Part shown: one piece after another, positions 2,458 through 35,155 of the stretch
Layout of the letters: each line of letters starts with the position of its first letter
Position numbering within the stretch: position 1 is the first letter of the stretch
Sequence record: OZ317122.1
Length of the DNA stretch: 64,000 nt
DNA from: a phage
Strand: one strand, 5' to 3'
The notes under the pieces: model-generated
What the model saw: only the letters and a program-made list of their open reading frames with translations
Database searches by the model: none
What the model was told of the DNA's origin: nothing
Position numbers and translations under genes: made by a program

Positions 2458-4278
2458 CTACTGGCTCATCCATTCTTTACGAAGGTCAGCATTATCTCCC
2501 ATGAGCATTTCAAAAAGCTCTTTCCAATTCTCAGGAAGTTTAACAACATCATATACTGGATTTTGAATCATCTCACGATATTCAGATTTTTCCAAAGAGC
2601 CAAGTCCTTTAATATAACGGATGCTATGTTTAGGTAGAGCATCTTTAGCACTCTCATATTCAGCGACTGTATAAAACCATTCTTGTTTTTTACCGACCTG
2701 AGCGATGATTACAGGAGTTTTGACAAAACGAATTCGTCCTTGCTCAAACAATTCTGGCCAATTACTAAAAAATCCAAGCAGAGAAGGATAAATGCTTCCT
2801 AGGCCATCATGGTCAGCATCAGTCATAATAGCGATATTATGATAATTCAAGTTTTCAGCTTTTTCACCGAGAACTAATCCAGTGATTGCGCAAATATCAA
2901 ATAGTTCTTTGTTTTTAAGCATATCTGCATAAGACATACCCCAACTGTTGAGAACTTTACCGCGCAATGGATAACCACCGTGAAGTTCTTTATCACGAAC
3001 ATCAATAAGATATCCGATAGCCGAATCACCCTCAGTCAAGAAAAGAGTAGTGTCAGCATCTTTACCACAAAGATTCGCTTTGATATGTTTATGAACCTTA
3101 GCTTTAGAAGCCTTTTTAGCTGCTTTAGTTTCTGCTGCTTTTTCTGCCGCCAATTTACGAGCCAAAGCAGCTTCAATAATCGGCATTAGAATTGCTTCAT
3201 TATTTAGAATAGCGCGTGAAATCTTTTTAGCATCAAGCTGAATATGACTACGAATTTCACCAAAAGGAGAAGTAAGTCGTTCTTTAGTTTGAGAATCAAA
3301 TCGCATGTTTTTCATATCACGGACAAACATAACGATAGTCAAACATTCTTTAACACGCGCTTTAGTTACATCAATTTTGAACTTACGTTTGATTTGTGGA
3401 ATAAGGTCTTCACAAATATCATCCATAACACAGTCAATGTGATGGCCACCATTCTTAGTGTGAATGTTATTGACGTATGTTAATTGACGAAAACCATCCG
3501 GTGAACGACCAACCGCAATAGAACAATTTTCTTGTTCTTGAACGATAGCATGCTCATCATATTGGCGTGCATATTTCTTAAAATTGCCCTGAACCTTTTT
3601 ACCATTAAAGGTAAATTGAATATCAGGATAAACTACTGCAAGTGTCTGGAGACGATCTAGTGTAATGTCAAGATAAACTTGGGACAGCTCATTAGTTTCA
3701 AATGACATAAAATCAGGAATGAAAGTAACACGAGTTCCTTTCCATTTTCCAGGAATAGTTTCCCATGATTTATTTTCCATGCCATTTGAACAACGAACTA
3801 CAATATTATTTTGACCATCACCAGTTTCACCGACAAACATCACAGAAAAAATGTTTGTCAAACTAGAACCAACACCATTCATACCGCCAGTGACGCGTTC
3901 TTTATCATCACCGAAGTTACCACCTGCTTTTGGAATAGTCCATGCAGCAACAGGACCAGGAATTTCTTCACCGGTAGGTGTTTTAACCATCGCCTGCGGA
4001 ATACCACGACCGTTATCTTCAACTGTTACTTGATTGTTTTTAATAGTAACATTAATTTTATTTGCGAATTTAAACTTAGTACGAATACCTTCATCTACTG
4101 AGTTATCGATAATTTCATCAATAAGCTTAACAAGACCAGGTACATACTGAACACTTTCCCATTTACCAAACAGAAAGCGCTCATGCATTTCATTAGCAGA
4201 AGAGCCAATATACATGCCACTACGCTTTTTGATATGCTCAATATCGCTCAGAATTTTAATTTCATTCTTAATCATCAC
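2458..4278 (-). CDS. 39: DNA topoisomerase II large (ATPase, GyrB-like) subunit, contiguous form covering gene 39 plus gene 60 equivalents
   Basis: 606 aa; N-terminus MIKNEIKILSDIEHIKKRSGMYIGS; GHKL ATPase motifs; one uninterrupted ORF. Confidence 0.9.
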   Translation of the reverse strand: MMIKNEIKILSDIEHIKKRSGMYIGSSANEMHERFLFGKWESVQYVPGLVKLIDEIIDNSVDEGIRTKFKFANKINVTIKNNQVTVEDNGRGIPQAMVKTPTGEEIPGPVAAWTIPKAGGNFGDDKERVTGGMNGVGSSLTNIFSVMFVGETGDGQNNIVVRCSNGMENKSWETIPGKWKGTRVTFIPDFMSFETNELSQVYLDITLDRLQTLAVVYPDIQFTFNGKKVQGNFKKYARQYDEHAIVQEQENCSIAVGRSPDGFRQLTYVNNIHTKNGGHHIDCVMDDICEDLIPQIKRKFKIDVTKARVKECLTIVMFVRDMKNMRFDSQTKERLTSPFGEIRSHIQLDAKKISRAILNNEAILMPIIEAALARKLAAEKAAETKAAKKASKAKVHKHIKANLCGKDADTTLFLTEGDSAIGYLIDVRDKELHGGYPLRGKVLNSWGMSYADMLKNKELFDICAITGLVLGEKAENLNYHNIAIMTDADHDGLGSIYPSLLGFFSNWPELFEQGRIRFVKTPVIIAQVGKKQEWFYTVAEYESAKDALPKHSIRYIKGLGSLEKSEYREMIQNPVYDVVKLPENWKELFEMLMGDNADLRKEWMSQ

Positions 4279-4328
4279 TTATCCTCGTTTGGTTTCGGGA
4301 ATATTATACTCCGGTAATCATAAAGCTA

Positions 4329-4344
4329 AAGGCCCTAAGGCCTT
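4329..4344 (-). other. intercistronic GC hairpin (AAGGCC-loop-GGCCTT)
   Basis: perfect 6-bp stem, 4-nt loop, just 3' of ORF 4345..4614. Confidence 0.35.
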
Positions 4345-4614
4345 TTATTTAAAACGAATAGTTGAATCCTTAAAGAACAGCCCAGAACATACTGTTCCTT
4401 CTACTTTCTGCCCGGTAGGTCCAATAGCACGAAATCCAGTATGCTGGAAATCATTTTCAGAGCAACCGAACCAGTTATATCCAGTGATTTCAATATTAGT
4501 AAACCCACTTGAAGACAAAACTTTGGTTGCATTATCAGCATCAGTACATCCTACTAAAGATACTGCTAATACTAATGCCGCGATAGAACGATTAACATAT
4601 TTCATAATTTTCAC
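4345..4614 (-). CDS. putative lipoprotein (signal peptide with LVGC lipobox)
   Basis: 89 aa; N-terminus MKIMKYVNRSIAALVLAVSLVGC. Confidence 0.6.
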   Translation of the reverse strand: MKIMKYVNRSIAALVLAVSLVGCTDADNATKVLSSSGFTNIEITGYNWFGCSENDFQHTGFRAIGPTGQKVEGTVCSGLFFKDSTIRFK

Positions 4615-4982
4615 TTAAATTTAATGGCTTGAAGAAGACTAATAACTCTCAAGCGACTTCTTTCATCTTTAACTGTAAAAGAAAGAGGGTCACCAGACTT
4701 CATAGTAATAGTGCATTCAAAATCAAAATCTTCGGAAACTTCTTTGAAGAAGTCAAATTCTTCATCATAAATTAAAACTTCACTCCGAAGACTGTGAAGA
4801 ATTTTTCCGTCATTTCCAGATGCTGTACTAATCATTGTAACATTATTACCTTTCATATCTTCAACGATAAATTCGCTTGTAGATATTACAGCATTAATAG
4901 AACCATTCCTATAAATAGCAGAAAATAGATATTTCTTTTCTTCACCTTCGCGAATGCGATATTTCTTACCTATTTTAAACAT
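4611..4982 (-). CDS. hypothetical protein
   Basis: 123 aa ORF, ATGA overlap with downstream gene. Confidence 0.55.
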   Translation of the reverse strand: MFKIGKKYRIREGEEKKYLFSAIYRNGSINAVISTSEFIVEDMKGNNVTMISTASGNDGKILHSLRSEVLIYDEEFDFFKEVSEDFDFECTITMKSGDPLSFTVKDERSRLRVISLLQAIKFK

Positions 4983-9061: not shown

Positions 9062-10381
9062 TCACACATAAAACACATCATAACGACCACGAGTAACACC
9101 AACATAAAGAAGTTGCTGAGCTAGTTCAGCGTCTGCATAATGAATACAAGGCGTATAAATGAAAGCACGGTCTACAGACATACCTTGAGCTTTATGGAAT
9201 GTTGATGCAGGAAGTGCTTTCACTTTACTAAACTGTGATTTAGCATCCCAAAAATCACTCCATGGAGCTTTTCCGCCTTTGTTCCAATTTTTATAAGTTT
9301 CTGCCGTTTTACCTAAAAATAGGTTAAACTTATATAACTCTTCATCAGATGAAATTATTTTAATCTTTTCACGATAATATTCATCATCGCCGTAAGTTTC
9401 TACTGTTAAATCCCAATGACGAATTAAGTATTCTCCAGGAACACCACGAGCTTTAACAAACGTCGATGTATACTCTGCTTCTATAATACGAACTAATTGT
9501 CCGTTATTAAAAATAATTTCTGACACAGGCTTTCCATCAATTTTATATGTTTTAATTAATGGTTCCTGCATTACAATAATTTCACCGACAATAAAATCTT
9601 TATCAGTTTCAAAAATCTTTTTACGAATAATGCTATTTAACTTGTCAACAGATTTATTTGTAAATGCCATTACGCGATTTTCAAACAAATCGTCTAGTGA
9701 TTTTACGATTGAAAAATAATTTACCATAAAATCGCGTAAAGCGGTATCACCAGTAAATCCACGTACTCCATGCCCGTCAACAACTTTATCATAAATCCAC
9801 TTACCGTTACGAACGTCAGTAGCTACATCAATAATAGGAGCATTACTGCGTTTAACTTCAGTGAGTTCACACTGATAAAAATCTTTATGTGTAAAGAATG
9901 GACTGATATAAGCAGTATTTTCTCCTGGATCAACAGGTCTAATTTGCTTATTATCACCTATTCCAATTATAGTACACCAAGGTGGAATAGTTGAAAGCAG
10001 AATTTTAAATAGCTTTCTATCATACATTGACACTTCGTCGCAGATTAATACCCTGCATTTAGCTAAATCTGGTACTTCCTTCTGTTCAAAAAGAACGTTT
10101 TCTTCATACGTAACTGGGTTAATTTTAAGAATACTGTGAATAGTACTCGCTTCTTTCCCCGACAGTTTTGAAAGAATCTTTTTAGCTGCATGTGTAGGAG
10201 CTGCTAAAATAATACCAGTTTCACCCGTAGATATTAAAGCTTCAATGATGAACTTAGTAAGAGTAGTCTTACCAGTACCAGCAGGTCCATTAATAGTTAC
10301 ATGATGTTTCTTTTCTTTAATAGCCCTCATAACGATGTTAAAGGCATTTTTCTGGCCTTCTGTCAAATCATCAAATGTCAT
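9062..10381 (-). CDS. dda: Dda DNA helicase (SF1B)
   Basis: 439 aa; Walker A GPAGTGKTT; size equals T4 Dda. Confidence 0.9.
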   Translation of the reverse strand: MTFDDLTEGQKNAFNIVMRAIKEKKHHVTINGPAGTGKTTLTKFIIEALISTGETGIILAAPTHAAKKILSKLSGKEASTIHSILKINPVTYEENVLFEQKEVPDLAKCRVLICDEVSMYDRKLFKILLSTIPPWCTIIGIGDNKQIRPVDPGENTAYISPFFTHKDFYQCELTEVKRSNAPIIDVATDVRNGKWIYDKVVDGHGVRGFTGDTALRDFMVNYFSIVKSLDDLFENRVMAFTNKSVDKLNSIIRKKIFETDKDFIVGEIIVMQEPLIKTYKIDGKPVSEIIFNNGQLVRIIEAEYTSTFVKARGVPGEYLIRHWDLTVETYGDDEYYREKIKIISSDEELYKFNLFLGKTAETYKNWNKGGKAPWSDFWDAKSQFSKVKALPASTFHKAQGMSVDRAFIYTPCIHYADAELAQQLLYVGVTRGRYDVFYV

Positions 10382-22994: not shown

Positions 22995-23837
22995 TTAATC
23001 AACTGCTATTGGATGAATAGCATTAAACTTATGAAATGCTTCTGATTTTTCTTTACGCGAAACGCACATGCGAAGAACCTTTAATGGCTCGTCTTCTTCA
23101 CCCAACGATTTTCGTTTTTCAATATTAGAAGTTTTCCAACGAGCTTGCTCTGGAAACTCTCTATTGATTTGCTCAAGCGCTCTATTATGTTTAGAATTAC
23201 TACGAATTGAACTACACCCGCCAGGAGCTTGTGCTTTTCCAGATACAACTAGATATTTGAACAAGGCCAAATGCGGATAACCTTGATTAATTAAATTGAG
23301 AAATGCATACATATCTTCGCATAAATCAATTTTTCCATACCCAATTTGTTCTGTCGTAAGTTTTCCGAGGTCATACCATGTATTCGTGAATCCATATGAA
23401 TTTTCACGATAATTACCCCAAGATGAAGTAATTTTAAAAATTGGTAGACGAGCATGACCGTGATAATACCCGCAATCCATGGCATCTTCAACATATTGAA
23501 TCAATTCATAGAACTGTTCACGAGTTAATTGATTAATTTTATCTACGCGCCGTTTATCGTCTCTCTTTCGTATTGAACTCATACGGATAGTAGTATCATC
23601 GTCAATCATCCAGATTCGTTGGCCTGCATACATATCAGTAATTGCTTTACGAGTACCGGCAATTCCGTTTACATCATCAGGAATAGTTATAATTTTAGCT
23701 CTAGACCCATAGGCATCATAATAAGCTTTTTCTTCATGTTCACGCACTACAATATGGGGTTCATAATCAGTCGGAAACATATCAAGGGCAGAAACTGCCC
23801 CGACACGCTGATAACTTGGAATTACGAATTGAATCAT
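22995..23837 (-). CDS. putative DNA-modifying glycosyltransferase at the beta-gt locus (not T4-type beta-gt)
   Basis: 280 aa; DxD-like IDDDTT; sits between uvsX and 42 where T4 has its 351-aa beta-gt. Confidence 0.45.
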   Translation of the reverse strand: MIQFVIPSYQRVGAVSALDMFPTDYEPHIVVREHEEKAYYDAYGSRAKIITIPDDVNGIAGTRKAITDMYAGQRIWMIDDDTTIRMSSIRKRDDKRRVDKINQLTREQFYELIQYVEDAMDCGYYHGHARLPIFKITSSWGNYRENSYGFTNTWYDLGKLTTEQIGYGKIDLCEDMYAFLNLINQGYPHLALFKYLVVSGKAQAPGGCSSIRSNSKHNRALEQINREFPEQARWKTSNIEKRKSLGEEDEPLKVLRMCVSRKEKSEAFHKFNAIHPIAVD

Positions 23838-24475
23838 TTAAGTGCCTTACATTTGTCAAAATGGTATCTTGTCATATTTGGCCCACGTCCTTTTAGTCCG
23901 CAATGCGGACATATTTTTTCTATCAAATTATGAGGTTTTCCTTTACGATTTTTAGACATCGTTTCTTTAATTATTTTAGCTTTTTCTACGCCAAAAATTT
24001 CTTCATAAGTTTTACCAGAATTTTCCTTGGCTCGATTTATAATTCCATATGCCTGCTCATTTTTACCATACATTGGATTACCTTCGCCTTTCATTCTTTT
24101 AGAATGATCAGGACGCTTGATTCCACGAAAGGCATTTCCGCACTTATATCTTTCTTCTGGAGATAGTTTTTTACCGTACATTCCATTTAATTTGCCTGGA
24201 AAACTTCCTCCCCATGCTTCATTCTTTAAATTATATGAATCCGGACAATTAGCAGCATCTAAACAAGTTAAAATAATTTCTTCAACCTGTCTAAACATTG
24301 GTCCTTCATATAATATTTCTTTATTAAAGGATTTTATTCCATATTTCTTTTTAGCATGTTGCCAAACTACACCCGAACCATCATAATTCGGGTTGTGACC
24401 ATCATGACTTCCTATATACCACTTTTTAGTTTTAGGATGTTTATACTTATAAACATGTGGCACATTTACTTCCAT
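23834..24475 (-). CDS. GIY-YIG homing endonuclease (Seg-like) with C-terminal zinc finger
   Basis: 213 aa; VYKYKHPKTKKWYIGS GIY-YIG motif; CPHCGLKGRGPNMTRYHFDKC; overlaps both neighbours. Confidence 0.75.
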   Translation of the reverse strand: MEVNVPHVYKYKHPKTKKWYIGSHDGHNPNYDGSGVVWQHAKKKYGIKSFNKEILYEGPMFRQVEEIILTCLDAANCPDSYNLKNEAWGGSFPGKLNGMYGKKLSPEERYKCGNAFRGIKRPDHSKRMKGEGNPMYGKNEQAYGIINRAKENSGKTYEEIFGVEKAKIIKETMSKNRKGKPHNLIEKICPHCGLKGRGPNMTRYHFDKCKALK

Positions 24476-31373: not shown

Positions 31374-32060
31374 TTAAAAATCATGGGTAGAATCAGCTTC
31401 AAGAGCTACTACATAATTCGCATGTTCACCTTCAAATTTAGCAGCGCCTTGTTTACCTTTTGCCCAAAGCAGAAGTTTATAATTTCCTGGTTGCATTTTC
31501 ATATTTGCCATATTGATAATGAAATTAAATGTGTTTTCACCATCATAATCACCAAGAGTCAAAGAATATTTAACACGGGTCAGAGCAGAATCTTCTACTT
31601 TATTAAAACCGTTAATTACGATTTTACCTTCTTTTACTGTGATAGCAATTGTATCAATCTGCAGACCGCGAGATACACGCAACAACTGTTGAAGGTCTTC
31701 AGCTTTAATTTCGGTAACAACAGATGCTACCGGGAATGGAATTGGTTTATTAGGAGCAACTACTGTACTCGGATCGGCTGCTGGCCAAAAAATTGTTGAA
31801 CGGGCATCAGCAATTTTAATATTTCCATCTTCTGACTGGGAAATTTCTGCATCATCATTAACTAGCGACAGAATACCGAGAAAACCGTTCAAATCGTAAA
31901 TTGCTACATCAAAATCAATAACGTCAGAAATATTTGCTTCCGCGTAAGTTGTACCATTAACTGCGCGAGTCATAATAAATTGACCGGATTTAAGCATAAT
32001 GCCAGAGTTAATAGTAGCGAAATTTTTAAGCAGAGCAGTAGTATCTTTAGACAGTTTCAT
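31374..32060 (-). CDS. 45: sliding clamp
   Basis: 228 aa; MKLSKDTTALLKNFATINSGIMLKSGQFIMTRAVNGTTYAEANISD. Confidence 0.9.
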   Translation of the reverse strand: MKLSKDTTALLKNFATINSGIMLKSGQFIMTRAVNGTTYAEANISDVIDFDVAIYDLNGFLGILSLVNDDAEISQSEDGNIKIADARSTIFWPAADPSTVVAPNKPIPFPVASVVTEIKAEDLQQLLRVSRGLQIDTIAITVKEGKIVINGFNKVEDSALTRVKYSLTLGDYDGENTFNFIINMANMKMQPGNYKLLLWAKGKQGAAKFEGEHANYVVALEADSTHDF

Positions 32061-32115
32061 GTAATTTCCTTCAATTCAAATGAGATTTAATTTTATAACT
32101 AATTTAATAAAGCAA

Positions 32116-32505
32116 TTAACGATTAAAATCAGCCGCAATTGTTTCCGCAACAATTTGAGCAGCAACAATTAGACGTTCATCTGCATTACCGCAATAATCA
32201 TCTTCAAGACGTTCACCACATGAAGTCATAATAAATTTAGCACCGGCGTTTAGGGATTCTGTAGTATGTTTGCGCATTAGTTCAATCCATTTATTACTTA
32301 CTTCACGATCGATAGCTTCATAATACGCATGACGAGCAGGTGCAGATTTAATTTTGTTCTGAATAACTTCCATTGCGTTATCAGAAAGAGACAAAACCCA
32401 TGCTCGACGAATTTTATTTTGGTTTTGTGGATTTGATTCAGAACGCACGTGTTTTGGCTGAATATCTTTTACATCAACAGTATAATTCACAGTAATTTTA
32501 GTCAT
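32116..32505 (-). CDS. rpbA: RNA polymerase binding protein RpbA
   Basis: 129 aa in the expected position after 45. Confidence 0.7.
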
Positions 32506-32514
32506 AATACACCT

Positions 32515-32706
32515 TTAGTCATAATAATCAGTAACAGTCCAAGCTTCATTTCTATTGGACATTATTTTTGTATATTCTGCTTTAAATGCATTCCTAAGCA
32601 TAGATTCAGTAACTATATGCTCTTCATTAGAAAAATTATTTCTCAGAATATATCGTTTTATTTCAGGAATAGTTAATAGATGCTGTCCGGTTGAATATTC
32701 TGCCAC
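32515..32706 (-). CDS. small hypothetical protein (45.x position)
   Basis: 63 aa ORF. Confidence 0.45.
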   Translation of the reverse strand: MAEYSTGQHLLTIPEIKRYILRNNFSNEEHIVTESMLRNAFKAEYTKIMSNRNEAWTVTDYYD

Positions 32707-32716
32707 AATTCCTCCG

Positions 32717-32724
32717 TATAAATA
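32717..32724 (+). promoter_or_regulatory. late promoter TATAAATA for the HNH gene
   Basis: exact TATAAATA on plus strand about 34 nt upstream of ATG 32758, followed by AAGGA SD. Confidence 0.6.
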
Positions 32725-32757
32725 TGTTTATCACTCGCTGTATCAAAAGGATATGTT

Positions 32758-33474
32758 ATGAATTATAAACTAATTTATGAAAAGTTAATCTCTAATGCTA
32801 AATCTCGAAAACTTGATTGCTATACTGAATCTCATCACATTATACCACGCTGTTTAAATGGCAGCGATGATGCTTCAAACTTAGTAGATTTAACACCAGA
32901 AGAGCACTATGTAGCTCATCAACTTTTAGTAAAAATTTATCCTTCTGAACCAAAATTAGTCTATGCTGCTAACATGATGACAGTTTCCACGAAATACGCT
33001 AAACGCAACAATAAAACTTTCGGTTGGATTCGTCGTAAACTCTGGGAAATAGAAAAGAATAAAGAATTCTCCCAGGAGACACGAAAGAAAATGTCTGATG
33101 CAGTAGCTAATAAAGCAAGACTAACTTGTCCTCATTGCGGTAAGTCTGGATTAAGTGGGAATATGAATCGTTGGCATTTTGATAACTGCCCAAATCACCC
33201 TAATCCTAAAGTTAGACCACCAATGTCTAAAGAACATAGAAATAATATCTCAAACGGGCTTAAAGCAATCGTTCTTGAAGAAACATCCTGCGAATTCTGC
33301 GGAATGATAGGCAAGAAATGCGTTATCGCAGCGCATAGAAATTTCTGCAAGAAAAATCCAAATGGACGCAAGAAAACTGAAAAGACTGGTACTTGCGTCC
33401 ACTGTGGTAAAGTTACCACTTTCGGAAATTTATCAAGATGGCATAATGATAACTGTAAATATAAACCTAGCTAA
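32758..33474 (+). CDS. HNH homing endonuclease with three zinc-finger modules
   Basis: 238 aa; ESHHIIPRCLNGSDDASNLVDLTPEEHYVAH; three CxxCG...NxxRWH.DNC modules; opposite strand to all neighbours. Confidence 0.8.
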   Translation: MNYKLIYEKLISNAKSRKLDCYTESHHIIPRCLNGSDDASNLVDLTPEEHYVAHQLLVKIYPSEPKLVYAANMMTVSTKYAKRNNKTFGWIRRKLWEIEKNKEFSQETRKKMSDAVANKARLTCPHCGKSGLSGNMNRWHFDNCPNHPNPKVRPPMSKEHRNNISNGLKAIVLEETSCEFCGMIGKKCVIAAHRNFCKKNPNGRKKTEKTGTCVHCGKVTTFGNLSRWHNDNCKYKPS

Positions 33475-35155
33475 TCTTAGCTAAACTAAATCTACCAACT
33501 TTTTCCATTTGAATATGCTGACCATATTCTTGTGGGTCATGGTCTTTATGCGAAATTATGAAGAAGTTGGTATCCTTCAAACCATCTAAAATTTTAGCTA
33601 CATTTTTAATACCTTCAGCATCAAATGCACCGTCATACACTTCATCAAGAAATAAACAACTTATTTTAACACCTGAAACTTTTTCAGCAATATCACGCCA
33701 AGTAAATAAAAGAGCAATATCAATTCGCGCTTTTTCACCTTGACTGAATGAAGCATAACTAAAATCTTCACGACCACGGGATTTAATTGTCTCATTAAAT
33801 TCTTCATCTAATGTAAACACATAATCCGCTTCCATTATTTTAAGATAATGGTTAATCTGCTTATTAAATAATGGAATGTACTTTTTAATAATAGCACCTT
33901 TAATACCAGAATCTTTGAGCATATCAGTCAAAATTCCTCGGTGGTATTTTTCCATTACTAAATTAGTTTTTGTCTTAACAATTTTATCAAGTTCTTCTTG
34001 AAGCAGTGCTATTTCATCAGCATGGTCAATAAACTCAGAAGATGCTTTTTCTATAGCCGCTTTAACCTTTTTAGCTTTATCTACTGCTGCGATCAGAGAT
34101 TGCTTTTTATTGCGAATATCATTTGCTAACGACTGTTGGGTTTTAATATTATCTCGGTATTCATCAACAAGAACTTTTAAATTATCACGATGTGTTGAAA
34201 GCTGTTCAAACGAATGCGTACATTCAGAAACTTTATCTTTAATTTTAGAAACAACTTTATCACCGGAACTTAATTGTGACAAGCAGGTTGGACATAATCC
34301 ACCTTCGTGATACATATTAATGACTTTATTATACGAGTCAATTTTTGATTTAATTAAAACTGCTTCTTGACCGATTTTATTAAATGCATCAGTCGGGTCT
34401 TCGTCTAAAACAATATTAACTAATCTTTCATTAGCTTCTTCTATTTCCGATTTTAGCGTTCTAGCTTCTTTTGCCAAATCATCATACATATTTTGCAGAC
34501 GAGTAAGGTTGTCACCCGTTAATTTTTTCTGGCGTTCAACGTTATCATTATATATTTTAATTTGTTGGATAATACTATCTTTTTTAACATCAAGCACTTG
34601 GTTTTGTGAATTTAATTCGCGTATTAGTGCTTTATTAAGCTTATCCATTTCAGCTAATGTTCCTACCTCAAGCAAGTCTTCCACAAGCTTTCTTCGCGCA
34701 GGGGTCGACAAACCCATGAAAGGGGTATACCCTGCTGTACCAAGGACAACAATCTGCTTGAAACTGGCATATGACATTCCGATAAGCTGTTCAAATTCTG
34801 CTTGGAAATCTTTACTGCTGGCAGATTCATTAAGACGTGTACCGTTAACGGTGATTTCGAAAACGTTCGGTTTTTGTCCTCTTTTGATATAGTACTTTTT
34901 CTCATCATATTCCATCCACAGTTCAACTAAAAGTTCTTTCTTATTTGTGCTGTTTATTAATTGACCTTTCTTTACATCACGAAATGGCTTGCCAAAAAGC
35001 CCAAATGTGATGGCTTCTAACATAGTAGACTTACCACCACCATTTCGTCCAGTAATAAGAGTTTTTTGAACCTTATCTAATTGAATGTCAATAGGATTTC
35101 CACCTACTGACATTATATTTTGGTACCTAACTCGGTTTAGTTTAAAATTCTTCAC
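33467..35155 (-). CDS. 46: recombination nuclease subunit (Rad50/SbcC-like ATPase)
   Basis: 562 aa; Walker A GRNGGGKST; long coiled-coil; C-terminal signature/Walker B. Confidence 0.9.
   Translation of the reverse strand: MKNFKLNRVRYQNIMSVGGNPIDIQLDKVQKTLITGRNGGGKSTMLEAITFGLFGKPFRDVKKGQLINSTNKKELLVELWMEYDEKKYYIKRGQKPNVFEITVNGTRLNESASSKDFQAEFEQLIGMSYASFKQIVVLGTAGYTPFMGLSTPARRKLVEDLLEVGTLAEMDKLNKALIRELNSQNQVLDVKKDSIIQQIKIYNDNVERQKKLTGDNLTRLQNMYDDLAKEARTLKSEIEEANERLVNIVLDEDPTDAFNKIGQEAVLIKSKIDSYNKVINMYHEGGLCPTCLSQLSSGDKVVSKIKDKVSECTHSFEQLSTHRDNLKVLVDEYRDNIKTQQSLANDIRNKKQSLIAAVDKAKKVKAAIEKASSEFIDHADEIALLQEELDKIVKTKTNLVMEKYHRGILTDMLKDSGIKGAIIKKYIPLFNKQINHYLKIMEADYVFTLDEEFNETIKSRGREDFSYASFSQGEKARIDIALLFTWRDIAEKVSGVKISCLFLDEVYDGAFDAEGIKNVAKILDGLKDTNFFIISHKDHDPQEYGQHIQMEKVGRFSLAKIS

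Follow-up and report, generated by a model that had tools for sequence, protein, structure and literature searches.

The gene at the 45.2/46 junction of this T4-like phage is very probably a selfish, free-standing Mob-type HNH homing endonuclease, flanked by two conserved genes of replication and recombination and carried on a cassette that is found at the same place in only a minority of related phages. The window (the whole stretch of 64,000 nucleotides that was analysed) belongs to Tequatrovirus, with 99.6% identity to vB_EcoM-fFiEco06. The gene is not new, because it is annotated in RB32 and in dozens of other records: RB32 ORF054w (ABI94878, DQ904452) and about 60 Tequatrovirus equivalents hold the same gene in the same place, at 98–100% nucleotide identity over 45-rpbA-45.2-endonuclease-46, with no difference of substance and with annotation as their only information. 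The RB32 label of 2006 reads 'putative site-specific intron-like DNA endonuclease, similar to mobB', and others read 'homing/HNH endonuclease'; the protein encoded here is 99–100% identical to proteins labelled homing or HNH endonuclease (RB32, fFiEco06 and others). A literature search returned no paper that names the gene, whether by its locus tag or by its accession, or that joins homing endonuclease, Tequatrovirus and gene 46. We regard the element as an ordinary, already annotated yet uncharacterised free-standing homing endonuclease.

The original prediction singled out this gene as the only clearly real plus-strand gene of its minus-strand surroundings, and this holds: most other plus-strand open reading frames of at least 110 aa lie within or overlap minus-strand genes, and the single other one checked (4214–4618) is without a PHROG match. 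The endonuclease stop codon, TAA, occupies 33472–33474 and that of gene 46, read on the plus strand as CTA, occupies 33467–33469, such that the convergent frames have 33467–33474 in common, the 8-nt overlap that had been foreseen. The palindrome TAGCTAATCTTAGCTA across both stop codons (Table 1) folds into a hairpin of −5.6 kcal/mol on plus-strand RNA (z −3.1) and −11 kcal/mol on minus-strand RNA (z −2.2), and a scan for sigma-70 promoters and intrinsic terminators detected no terminator-like site there. The same scan, which is not designed for T4 late promoters, gave nothing relevant to the endonuclease gene.

Table 1 Features of the endonuclease cassette and its flanks (window coordinates)
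Feature	Position	Strand	Basis or remark
Homing endonuclease gene, 238 aa, ATG start	32758–33474	+	ORF list; PHROG 655 match, 8.6e-69
T4-type late promoter consensus TATAAATA	32717–32724	+	Exact match, 34 nt upstream of ATG
Ribosome-binding site AAGGA	32747–32751	+	6 nt before ATG; AAGGAT in Dhakavirus and Mosigvirus orthologues
Mob-type HNH nuclease domain, aa 1–95	32758–33042	+	Invariant residues, MobE homology, McrA profile match
Predicted catalytic codons H26/H27; N41; H50	32833–32838; 32878–32880; 32905–32907	+	
Predicted zinc finger 1, aa 124–144, CPHCGKSGLSGNMNRWHFDNC	33127–33189	+	CX2CX12HX3C pattern match; C124-X2-C-X12-H-X3-C144
Predicted zinc finger 2, aa 178–197, CEFCGMIGKKCVIAAHRNFC	33289–33348	+	CX2CX11HX3C, divergent finger; C178-X2-C-X11-H-X3-C197
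Predicted zinc finger 3, aa 213–233, CVHCGKVTTFGNLSRWHNDNC	33394–33456	+	Aligns to I-TevIII finger 2; C213-X2-C-X12-H-X3-C233
Small palindrome TAGCTAATCTTAGCTA	33468–33483		Spans both convergent stop codons
Carrier-specific cassette, 786 bp (~770)	32701–33486		Stands in place of ~70 bp of 45.2/46 junction sequence of T4 type
Altered start of gene 45.2	32698–32706	−	Carriers GTG-GCA-GAA (M-A-E); empty genomes ATG-GAA (M-E)
Last six codons of gene 46, from the cassette	33467–33486	−	gp46 ends ...GRFSLAKIS*; in T4 ...GRFTVMV*
Carrier-linked allele, last ~60 codons of gene 46	33487–33666	−	Divergence profile; read as a co-conversion tract
Predicted target position, altered (putatively immune) form CATTTGAATATG	33506–33517		Comparison of carrier and empty loci

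Upstream of the gene, both signals that had been proposed, an exact late promoter and an AAGGA Shine–Dalgarno sequence, are in place. The consensus TATAAATA is present in only two copies on the plus strand of the 64-kb window and is depleted overall, with 4 copies in total compared with 11.1 expected from shuffles. It recurs 44 nt (Dhakavirus) and 53 nt (Mosigvirus) upstream of the orthologues, followed in both by a conserved leader, GCTGTATCAAA..AAGGAT. The late promoter is part of the inserted segment and is conserved before orthologues in these two other genera, and we infer that TATAAATA works as the late promoter of the endonuclease gene. Folding of the late-transcript leader was no better than that of shuffled sequence (z −0.8), and this comparison gave no sign of a regulatory hairpin like the one restricting I-TevI translation. 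A similarity at 9 of 13 positions between the leader TATCAAATAAGGA and the predicted target CTTCAAATGAAGA, considered as a possible basis for I-TevI-type autoregulation, was discarded, as a rough estimate indicates that several such matches are expected by chance.

The protein is, on the evidence of its sequence, a Mob-type HNH endonuclease, and its architecture points to nuclease activity. The motif reads ...ESHHIIPRC..(N41)..(H50) and appears to supply the general-base histidine, structural asparagine and metal-ligand His/Asn that characterize HNH (His-Me finger) endonucleases. Across 28 homologues, E24, H26, H27, P30, G35, N41, H50 and H54 are invariant, and hence all four residues of the proposed HNH core (H26, H27, N41 and H50). 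In addition to the PHROG 655 match, homing endonuclease identity is supported by a match to MobE (36% identity over aa 1–141, E = 2e-23, with more than 50% identity in the first 60 residues) and by alignment of the family profile to the HNH motif of McrA (E = 5.7e-4); T4 mobD is 53% identical over aa 1–70, and the profile also aligned to the HNH motifs of a group II intron maturase, IscB and Cas8-HNH. AlphaFold2 (AF2) predicts strands at residues 24–27 and 42–45 followed by a helix at 47–60, with pLDDT above 93; mean pLDDT is 88 for the whole protein and 93–95 over the nuclease domain. The Pfam HNH family (PF01844) scores 16.9 bits, below the gathering cut-off of 21.4 (E = 0.0072), and NCBIfam gave only a sub-threshold IscB HNH match. 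Mob-type HNH domains are divergent, so the sub-threshold Pfam score weakens the database filing and not the motif evidence. Structure searches with the whole AF2 model gave nothing significant, and phmmer of the endonuclease against PDB sequences nothing meaningful.

The C-terminal part carries three predicted zinc fingers of I-TevIII type, all three modelled by AF2 as beta-beta-alpha units (in finger 1, strands 121–123 and 130–132 and helix 133–143). They had been described as three repeats of an 'N..RWH.DNC' form; this wording fits fingers 1 and 3, whereas finger 2, CEFCGMIGKKCVIAAHRNFC, keeps the ligand pattern with a different filling. Finger 1 is conserved in all same-site orthologues, and the finger 3 ligands C213, C216, H229 and C233 are invariant in 28 of 28 aligned homologues. 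Fingers 2 and 3 align to the two fingers of I-TevIII (BLASTP, 37% over 65 aa, E = 7e-8), with finger 2 opposite I-TevIII finger 1. The CX2CX12–13HX3C fingers of I-TevIII bind zinc and are required for DNA binding (PMC1865063); the X11 of finger 2 is one residue under that published range.

These two halves relate the protein to different known enzymes. MobE (T4/RB3 group, between nrdA and nrdB) shares a homologous N-terminal nuclease domain and is likewise free-standing, intergenic and sporadic in T-even phages, with a neighbouring conserved gene as its target (PMC2790892, PMC2988022), the target here being predicted. The present gene is antisense to its neighbours and has its own putative late promoter; for mobE, by contrast, no separate promoter is evident, and its transcription is shared with nrdA, which lies on the same strand (PMC2790892). 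In the RB5 copy of MobE the C-terminal half gave no alignment with the one here and showed no finger array; MobE has been shown to be a nickase. I-TevIII, from the RB3 nrdB intron, has HNH residues H26, H27, N39 and H48, compared with H26, H27, N41 and H50 here, and the same CX2CX12–13HX3C finger motif. It differs in being intron-encoded, in having two fingers and not three, in acting as a dimer that makes a double-strand break and in targeting nrdB and not gene 46; BLASTP gave no alignment between its HNH domain and the one described here. Endonucleases of the GIY-YIG Seg type are also free-standing and sporadic and, on cutting a neighbouring gene, cause flanking markers to be co-converted (PMC2988022), but their catalytic family is GIY-YIG and not HNH. 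The Seg-like open reading frame of the window itself (23834–24475) ends in the same type of finger, CPHCGLKGRGPNMTRYHFDKC.

Absence of the gene from the T4 order, which had been given as 45.2 followed directly by 46, was confirmed, since in T4 genes 45.2 (33058–33246) and 46 (33302–34984) are 55 bp apart. Among the matches listed, about 60 of 500–600 matching Tequatrovirus records have the gene, and the remainder, including T4, T2 and RB14, have a spacer of about 56 bp instead. Far from being present at this position in all relatives, the gene is therefore missing in some 90% of the Tequatrovirus records. Each record sampled has either the cassette or the ~56-bp spacer at the locus, with match spans of 1985 bp in carriers and 1271 bp in empty genomes. 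This alternation at one site, found on comparing the junction with relatives, supports the suggestion that the gene is a mobile insertion, and such sporadic presence and absence is what is seen with free-standing Mob-type genes. Orthologues occupy the same junction in the same convergent orientation in Dhakavirus, Mosigvirus, Pseudotevenvirus and Slopekvirus, making five genera with Tequatrovirus, and identity to those in the four other genera is 64%, 58%, 44% and 42%; in Mosigvirus 14 of about 155 records have the gene. A record named 'T4_ev240' (LR597657), considered as a laboratory acquisition by T4, was ruled out as such, as its gene order is that of another T-even isolate and not of T4.

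When 8 carrier and 11 empty Tequatrovirus loci are aligned, homology breaks after GAATATTC (32700) and picks up again at TAAATC (33487). These limits come from gap-tuned pairwise alignment and a 19-locus alignment; a global MAFFT alignment of the window with the T4 junction was dropped because in it the short spacer of T4 was spread in pieces over the insert. The cassette is not a clean insertion, for about 70 bp have been replaced, among them the 45.2 start codon and the final codons of gene 46. The 45.2 start codon, an extra Ala codon and the ribosome-binding site TTCCTCC (32710–32716) all lie within the cassette, and this additional Ala codon is found in the Mosigvirus cassette too. Clean loss should be difficult, because the cassette supplies the 45.2 start codon and ribosome-binding site as well as the last six codons of gene 46. 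Both flanking genes are intact, with the endonuclease gene between them as is usual for Mob-type genes; given this intergenic position, with no flanking gene interrupted, the gene is not to be filed as intron-encoded despite the 'intron-like' of the RB32 label.

Next to the cassette, carriers have their own allele of the end of gene 46. Divergence between carrier and empty loci is 0.14, 0.31 and 0.30 in three consecutive 60-nt windows and 0.00–0.07 elsewhere, whereas carriers differ from one another by about 0.01 in the two windows of highest divergence and by 0.05 in the one nearest the junction. All fixed differences outside the cassette fall in 33493–33658, and on the 45.2/rpbA side there are none across 885 bp. 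The tract includes the Walker B coding sequence, which gives LFLDE in carriers and LILDE in empty genomes. Among the matches listed, 60 records have the carrier allele at at least 95% identity, none lies at 90–95% and all others are below 90%; with a query that joins the 3′ end of the endonuclease gene to the carrier allele, 59 records are covered over at least 80%. That the allele records are the gene records follows from these matching counts (60 and 60) and the contiguous query (59). Dhakavirus repeats the pattern, with 27–35% divergence over 240 nt and 0–2% thereafter. Empty genomes themselves have two deeply diverged gene 46 tail alleles, 15–18% apart in Tequatrovirus and 23–28% in Mosigvirus, so the causes of hypervariability in the tail may not be limited to the element.

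A target close to the insertion had been thought probable, and comparison of loci supports this through the private, ~30% diverged 180-nt gene 46 allele and through one codon that is changed in three genera. Empty genomes read CATTTGAAGATG at 33506–33517, encoding gp46 His-Leu-Gln-Met. The position equivalent to 33514 is G in 15 of 15 empty loci and altered in all 11 carrier loci (Tequatrovirus, 8 carriers and 11 empty; Mosigvirus, 2 and 3; Dhakavirus, 1 and 1), carriers within one genus being related and not independent. The replacement is T in Tequatrovirus (AAT or TTTAAT) and A in Mosigvirus (TTGCAAATG) and Dhakavirus (TTGTAAATG), so that the same Leu codon is altered in carriers of three genera whereas empty genomes retain the G in AAGATG. 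The Tequatrovirus carrier form is TTGAATATG, compared with TTGAAGATG in tails of the T4/T2 type; the linked tract of this genus does not pinpoint the site by itself, given its length and the amino-acid changes it contains. Between Mosigvirus carriers and RB69 there are three silent changes within 7 nt at the predicted target and then 110 nt without a difference. Because the same Leu codon is changed in carriers, the target is predicted to lie 20–30 bp from the insertion point, the candidate being gene 46 around CATCTTCAAATG, where single substitutions are predicted to confer immunity. By this comparison carriers combine a variant of the predicted target, which would resist cleavage, with co-inherited flanking markers, as known for Mob-type elements.

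We propose the following course of events for a free-standing Mob-type homing endonuclease. Late in infection the gene would be transcribed from its own TATAAATA, on the strand opposite its early and middle neighbours, as the consensus and its conservation before orthologues suggest. The protein would combine the N-terminal HNH (His-Me finger) domain, a short NUMOD3-like linker and the three Cys2-His-Cys beta-beta-alpha fingers into a presumptive site-specific nuclease. In mixed infection with a cassette-free phage, it would recognize the 3′ end of that phage's gene 46 near 5′-CATCTTCAAATG-3′ (coding strand) and nick or cut it at the candidate site, as placed by the comparison of loci. Repair off the carrier genome, a step that is established T-even homing biology, would then copy the cassette together with the adjoining part of gene 46, which would account for the private, diverged last ~60 codons of carriers. 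The carrier's own gene 46 would escape cutting through Leu to Ile in Tequatrovirus and through silent Leu changes in Mosigvirus and Dhakavirus.

Signs of continuing function are that the frame is intact in the 7 of 7 copies translated, from five genera, with catalytic and zinc ligands invariant, and that dN/dS is 0.05–0.2 within and between genera, indicating purifying selection. They bear on whether the endonuclease has stopped moving and is kept since its cassette provides the 45.2/46 signals, its spread being ordinary recombination. That reading, which we consider unlikely, draws on the origin in the cassette of the essential 45.2 start and ribosome-binding site and the gene 46 end codons, and has precedents in the defunct I-TevIII of T4 and in the host promoters embedded in some seg and mob genes (PMC2988022); the Tequatrovirus copies, at least 95% identical, could equally be one recent lineage spread by recombination. 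A dead nuclease should, however, gather damage, as T4 I-TevIII did, and unless self-cleavage is, or recently was, selected against, it is difficult to account for alteration of the same gene 46 codon in three genera, silently in two of them.

Distribution and the locality of the linkage weigh on the remaining explanations. A late HNH nuclease adjoining the gp46/47 recombination nuclease genes might serve mainly to exclude or degrade co-infecting relatives, with marker exclusion as a competitive weapon, or in late DNA processing, with mobility as a by-product, and T-even homing endonucleases do cause marker exclusion (PMC2988022). A housekeeping role is ruled out by the absence of the gene from this locus in about 90% of close relatives, and the linkage signature does not extend beyond the surroundings of the insertion site. 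At the molecular level, homing and the exclusion of a competitor's local markers are one event, which makes the difference mostly one of emphasis; we judge this explanation very unlikely. The gene 46 tail allele might instead reflect shared ancestry, or diversifying selection on the gp46 C terminus, and the target site be coincidental: the tail is hypervariable among empty genomes too (two alleles, 15–28% apart), the loci sampled are few, and carriers of one genus are related to each other. Yet carriers differ as much among themselves in the flanks as the two groups differ from each other, and hence do not form a clonal clade; fixed differences are confined to 172 bp adjoining the element, on one side; and three genera show this pattern, the substitutions differing but the codon being the same. 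In Mosigvirus the rest of the carrier tail is nearly identical to that of RB69, an empty phage. Coincidence of this kind seems to us highly improbable, and we retain a homing endonuclease that would target gene 46 as the best account.

Gene 46 tail alleles differ by 15–35% in nucleotides, against a background of 1–4%, in at least three genera, and we propose that hypervariability of the tail in three genera may be linked to the endonuclease element. As a possible but tentative extension, the endonuclease lineage may target the codons of the conserved His-Leu-Gln-Met near the C terminus of gp46 (Rad50/SbcC-like), and repeated homing within and between genera may have made a conversion hotspot of the final ~60 codons, Walker B included, in what is an essential gene. 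If so, the split alleles of empty genomes would be relics of past invasions followed by loss, a selfish nuclease would be among the main forces shaping the sequence of one part of a core phage recombination protein, and the three-finger array would offer a tractable natural beta-beta-alpha array of a bacterial virus reading a defined site. The value for annotation is small, as the gene is already labelled a homing endonuclease and belongs to the well-studied Mob/I-TevIII world of T-even phages; what our analysis adds is a testable cut-site prediction, gene 46 around CATCTTCAAATG, for an uncharacterised member. Targets are known for two of the five T4 mob genes, those of MobA and MobE (PMC2988022). 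A third mapped Mob target, read by a three-finger recognition domain, would help to explain how these modular enzymes choose their sites and how sequence is shuffled across genera.

Between 45.2 and gene 46 lies a plus-strand gene for an HNH homing endonuclease, which was found, together with its late promoter TATAAATA, its AAGGA ribosome-binding site and its 8-nt overlap with gene 46, where the original prediction had placed them. The overlap arises because the stop codons of the two ORFs overlap. In the window, TATAAATA occurs four times against 11.1 expected from shuffles, with only two copies on the plus strand, so that a copy just upstream of the sole convincing plus-strand gene is unlikely to be incidental. 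The other plus-strand copy (4910–4917) is inside a minus-strand ORF (4611–4982). Most other plus-strand ORFs of at least 110 aa lie within or overlap minus-strand genes, and the one checked had no PHROG match.

Features of the endonuclease locus and of a second endonuclease gene in the window
Feature	Position	Strand	Remarks
Endonuclease ORF	32758–33474	+	238 aa, ATG start
45.2, left neighbour	32515–32706	−	PHROG 1045
Gene 46, right neighbour, SbcC-like	33467–35155	−	PHROG 77 at 6e-201
Late promoter TATAAATA	32717–32724	+	34 nt upstream of endonuclease gene
AAGGA, ribosome-binding site of endonuclease gene	32747–32751	+	6 nt before ATG
Endonuclease stop, TAA	33472–33474	+	
Gene 46 stop	33467–33469	−	CTA on +
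Palindrome TAGCTAATCTTAGCTA	33468–33483		16 nt; spans both stops
Zinc finger 1	aa 124–144		CX2C-X12-H-X3-C
Zinc finger 2	aa 178–197		CX2C-X11-H-X3-C
Zinc finger 3	aa 213–233		CX2C-X12-H-X3-C
Second free-standing endonuclease gene	23834–24475	−	213 aa; PHROG 314 at 2.3e-31

Over 32000–34500 the window matches two Tequatrovirus phages, Escherichia phage vB_EcoM-fFiEco06 at 99.6% identity and RB32 at 98.2%. RB32 (DQ904452, deposited 2006) annotates the same ORF as ‘putative site-specific intron-like DNA endonuclease, similar to mobB’ and many other records label it a homing or HNH endonuclease; the finding is thus correct and already annotated. A 2012 phylogeny of Mob-type endonucleases sampled the RB32 genome among others (PMC3468402), and our literature search found no paper on this gene itself. 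The element belongs to a well-known class and is annotated, though uncharacterised by experiment.

The protein is matched by PHROG 655 ‘homing endonuclease’ (8.6e-69), scores under the Pfam HNH threshold (16.9 versus 21.4 bits) and belongs to a large family (2,299 proteins at E ≤ 1e-5). Invariant positions across 28 aligned homologues include E24, H26, H27, P30, G35, N41, H50 and H54 together with C213, C216, H229 and C233; a profile built from this alignment finds the HNH motif in McrA of E. coli (E 5.7e-4), in a group II intron maturase, in IscB and in Cas8-HNH. MobE of RB5 shares 36% identity over aa 1–141 (E 2e-23), and the nuclease domain is, judged by sequence, Mob-type. All three fingers lie in the C-terminal half; the repeat CxxCG...NxxRWH.DNC originally proposed for each describes fingers 1 and 3, finger 2 having the same ligands with a different filling. 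The two fingers of I-TevIII align with fingers 2 and 3 (37% over 65 aa, E 7e-8). In that enzyme, each CX2CX12-13HX3C motif binds one zinc and is required for DNA binding, and the catalytic residues are H26, H27, N39 and H48 (Robbins et al., PMC1865063). An AlphaFold2 model from the 28-sequence alignment (mean pLDDT 88) predicts a strand–strand–helix unit in the HNH core and every finger; whole-chain structure searches with it were uninformative.

T4 lacks the gene, as the original prediction stated, its 45.2 and 46 being 55 bp apart. When the two joined flanks were used as a query, sampled records gave match spans of either 1,985 bp (cassette) or about 1,271 bp (spacer only), with no third type of occupant seen among them. 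The cassette is covered by 60 of 600 matching records, and the protein is encoded at ≥95% identity in 60. This sporadic distribution supports the suggested mobile insertion, through comparison of carrier and empty loci rather than by experiment.

The cassette is not a clean insertion. Homology with empty genomes ends after GAATATTC (32700) and restarts at TAAATC (33487), and the cassette therefore supplies not just the endonuclease gene with its late promoter but also the start and ribosome-binding site of 45.2 and the six final codons of gene 46: 45.2 begins GTG-GCA versus ATG in empty genomes, and gp46 ends ...GRFSLAKIS versus ...GRFTVMV in T4. It also takes the place of a strong hairpin in the minus-strand 46–45.2 spacer RNA of T4 (−20.5 kcal/mol, z −5.5, 0/200 shuffles as stable; T4 locus 9250–9310), which is present in other empty genomes too and closely precedes the ribosome-binding site of 45.2; carriers thus lack any part it may play in terminating, processing or coupling 46/45.2 expression. 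Tequatrovirus carriers start 45.2 with GTG, not ATG. In Tequatrovirus and Mosigvirus carriers alike, an additional Ala codon follows the start (M-A-E-Y versus M-E-Y; window 32698–32706, Mosigvirus carrier locus ~2415–2423), which places a common cassette boundary inside 45.2. NIC06P2 and ESH35 share a right-end sub-variant (equivalent to 33458–33540), with a 237-aa endonuclease ending ...CKHKH, gp46 ending ...GRFSVATIN and extra changes in adjoining gene 46 sequence, TTTAATATGCTGTCCATAATCCTGCGGATC.

Homologues occupy this junction in four other genera too, where they either converge on the stop of gene 46 or abut it: Dhakavirus 04086 (64% identity), Mosigvirus 348Ecol098PP and G2285 (58%; 14 of ~155 Mosigvirus records), Pseudotevenvirus Cronuts (44%) and Slopekvirus phT4A (42%). 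All keep three fingers. Upstream of the Dhakavirus and Mosigvirus genes, TATAAATA is followed by a conserved leader, GCTGTATCAAA..AAGGAT; the more distant Pseudotevenvirus and Slopekvirus genes have only (C/T)TAAATA there. Endonuclease dN/dS (0.05–0.14 within Tequatrovirus, 0.09–0.21 between genera) indicates purifying selection on the protein. The empty Dhakavirus JS10 has no spacer, its 45.2 and gene 46 sharing 4 nt (locus 1485–1488), whereas 04086 carries a full cassette; the ancestral junction thus differs among genera.

Aligning 8 carrier with 11 empty loci of Tequatrovirus showed no fixed difference over the 885 bp towards rpbA/45.2; in the direction of gene 46, fixed differences beyond the cassette edge all fall in 33493–33658, with none from 33659 to 34400. 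Carrier-versus-empty divergence in three 60-nt windows from 33487 is 0.14, 0.31 and 0.30 (elsewhere 0.00–0.07), whereas carriers diverge from one another by ~0.01 in the second and third of these windows and by 0.05 in the first, which is closest to the junction. A lineage artefact, which has some support, could produce such linkage; in the outer flanks, however, among-carrier diversity equals between-group divergence, and hence the carriers do not simply form one clone. Across the database, the carrier-type tail occurs at ≥95% identity in exactly 60 records, none at 90–95% and the rest below 90%; 59 records match a query of endonuclease gene end plus tail. Dhakavirus repeats this pattern: carrier 04086 and empty JS10 differ by 27–35% in the 240 nt of the tail that come first and by 0–2% in the next 300 nt.

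Mosigvirus is the most informative case for a candidate target: its carrier tail is nearly identical to that of empty RB69 except for a 7-nt stretch with three silent changes (CATTTGAAGATGTTG to CATTTGCAAATGCTG), 25–31 nt from the junction and followed by 110 nt without difference. The same codons read TTGAATATG or TTTAATATG in Tequatrovirus carriers (Leu to Ile) and TTGTAAATG in the Dhakavirus carrier (silent), and the G equivalent to 33514 is kept in 15/15 empty loci of three genera, within (T/C)TG(A/G)AG(A/G)TG. From this recurrent alteration in carriers and retention in empties, in small and partly non-independent samples, we predict that the endonuclease recognises or cuts gene 46 around coding-strand 5′-CATCTTCAAATG-3′ (encoding His-Leu-Gln-Met in gp46); the copy in the window (33506–33517) would be the immune form.

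The best-supported reading of these sequences is a working free-standing homing endonuclease that would be expressed late, bind DNA through its fingers and nick or cleave the gene 46 allele of empty genomes, whereupon repair would copy in the cassette along with the neighbouring part of gene 46. Such a mechanism agrees with that of MobE and the Seg enzymes (PMC2790892, PMC2988022). MobE nicks, whereas I-TevIII dimerises and cuts both strands, and the sequence here favours neither. There is some support too for an immobile remnant, retained since the cassette now supplies 45.2 and 46 signals, and for a nuclease selected chiefly for between-phage competition; both, like a lineage artefact, fit the conservation and recurrent codon changes less well than does a working homing endonuclease.

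The second endonuclease gene separates gene 42 from a 280-aa glucosyltransferase ORF; in T4_ev240 the glucosyltransferase and gene 42 are directly adjacent (locus 983–1825, 1822–2562), so this endonuclease gene is also sporadic. Its product has a GIY-YIG-like N terminus, NUMOD3-like repeats and a C-terminal finger, CPHCGLKGRGPNMTRYHFDKC, of the same type as in the HNH gene; one DNA-binding module thus accompanies two nuclease families within this window.

Among empty genomes, too, the gene 46 tail (33487–33666 and equivalents) comes in two strongly divergent alleles, T4-type versus T2-type differing by 15–18% and Mosigvirus RB69-type versus moskry-type by 23–28%, against 0–6% in neighbouring sequence. 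These alleles may record earlier invasions and losses. The main interest of the element lies in its testable target-site prediction and in this tie to gene 46 hypervariability.
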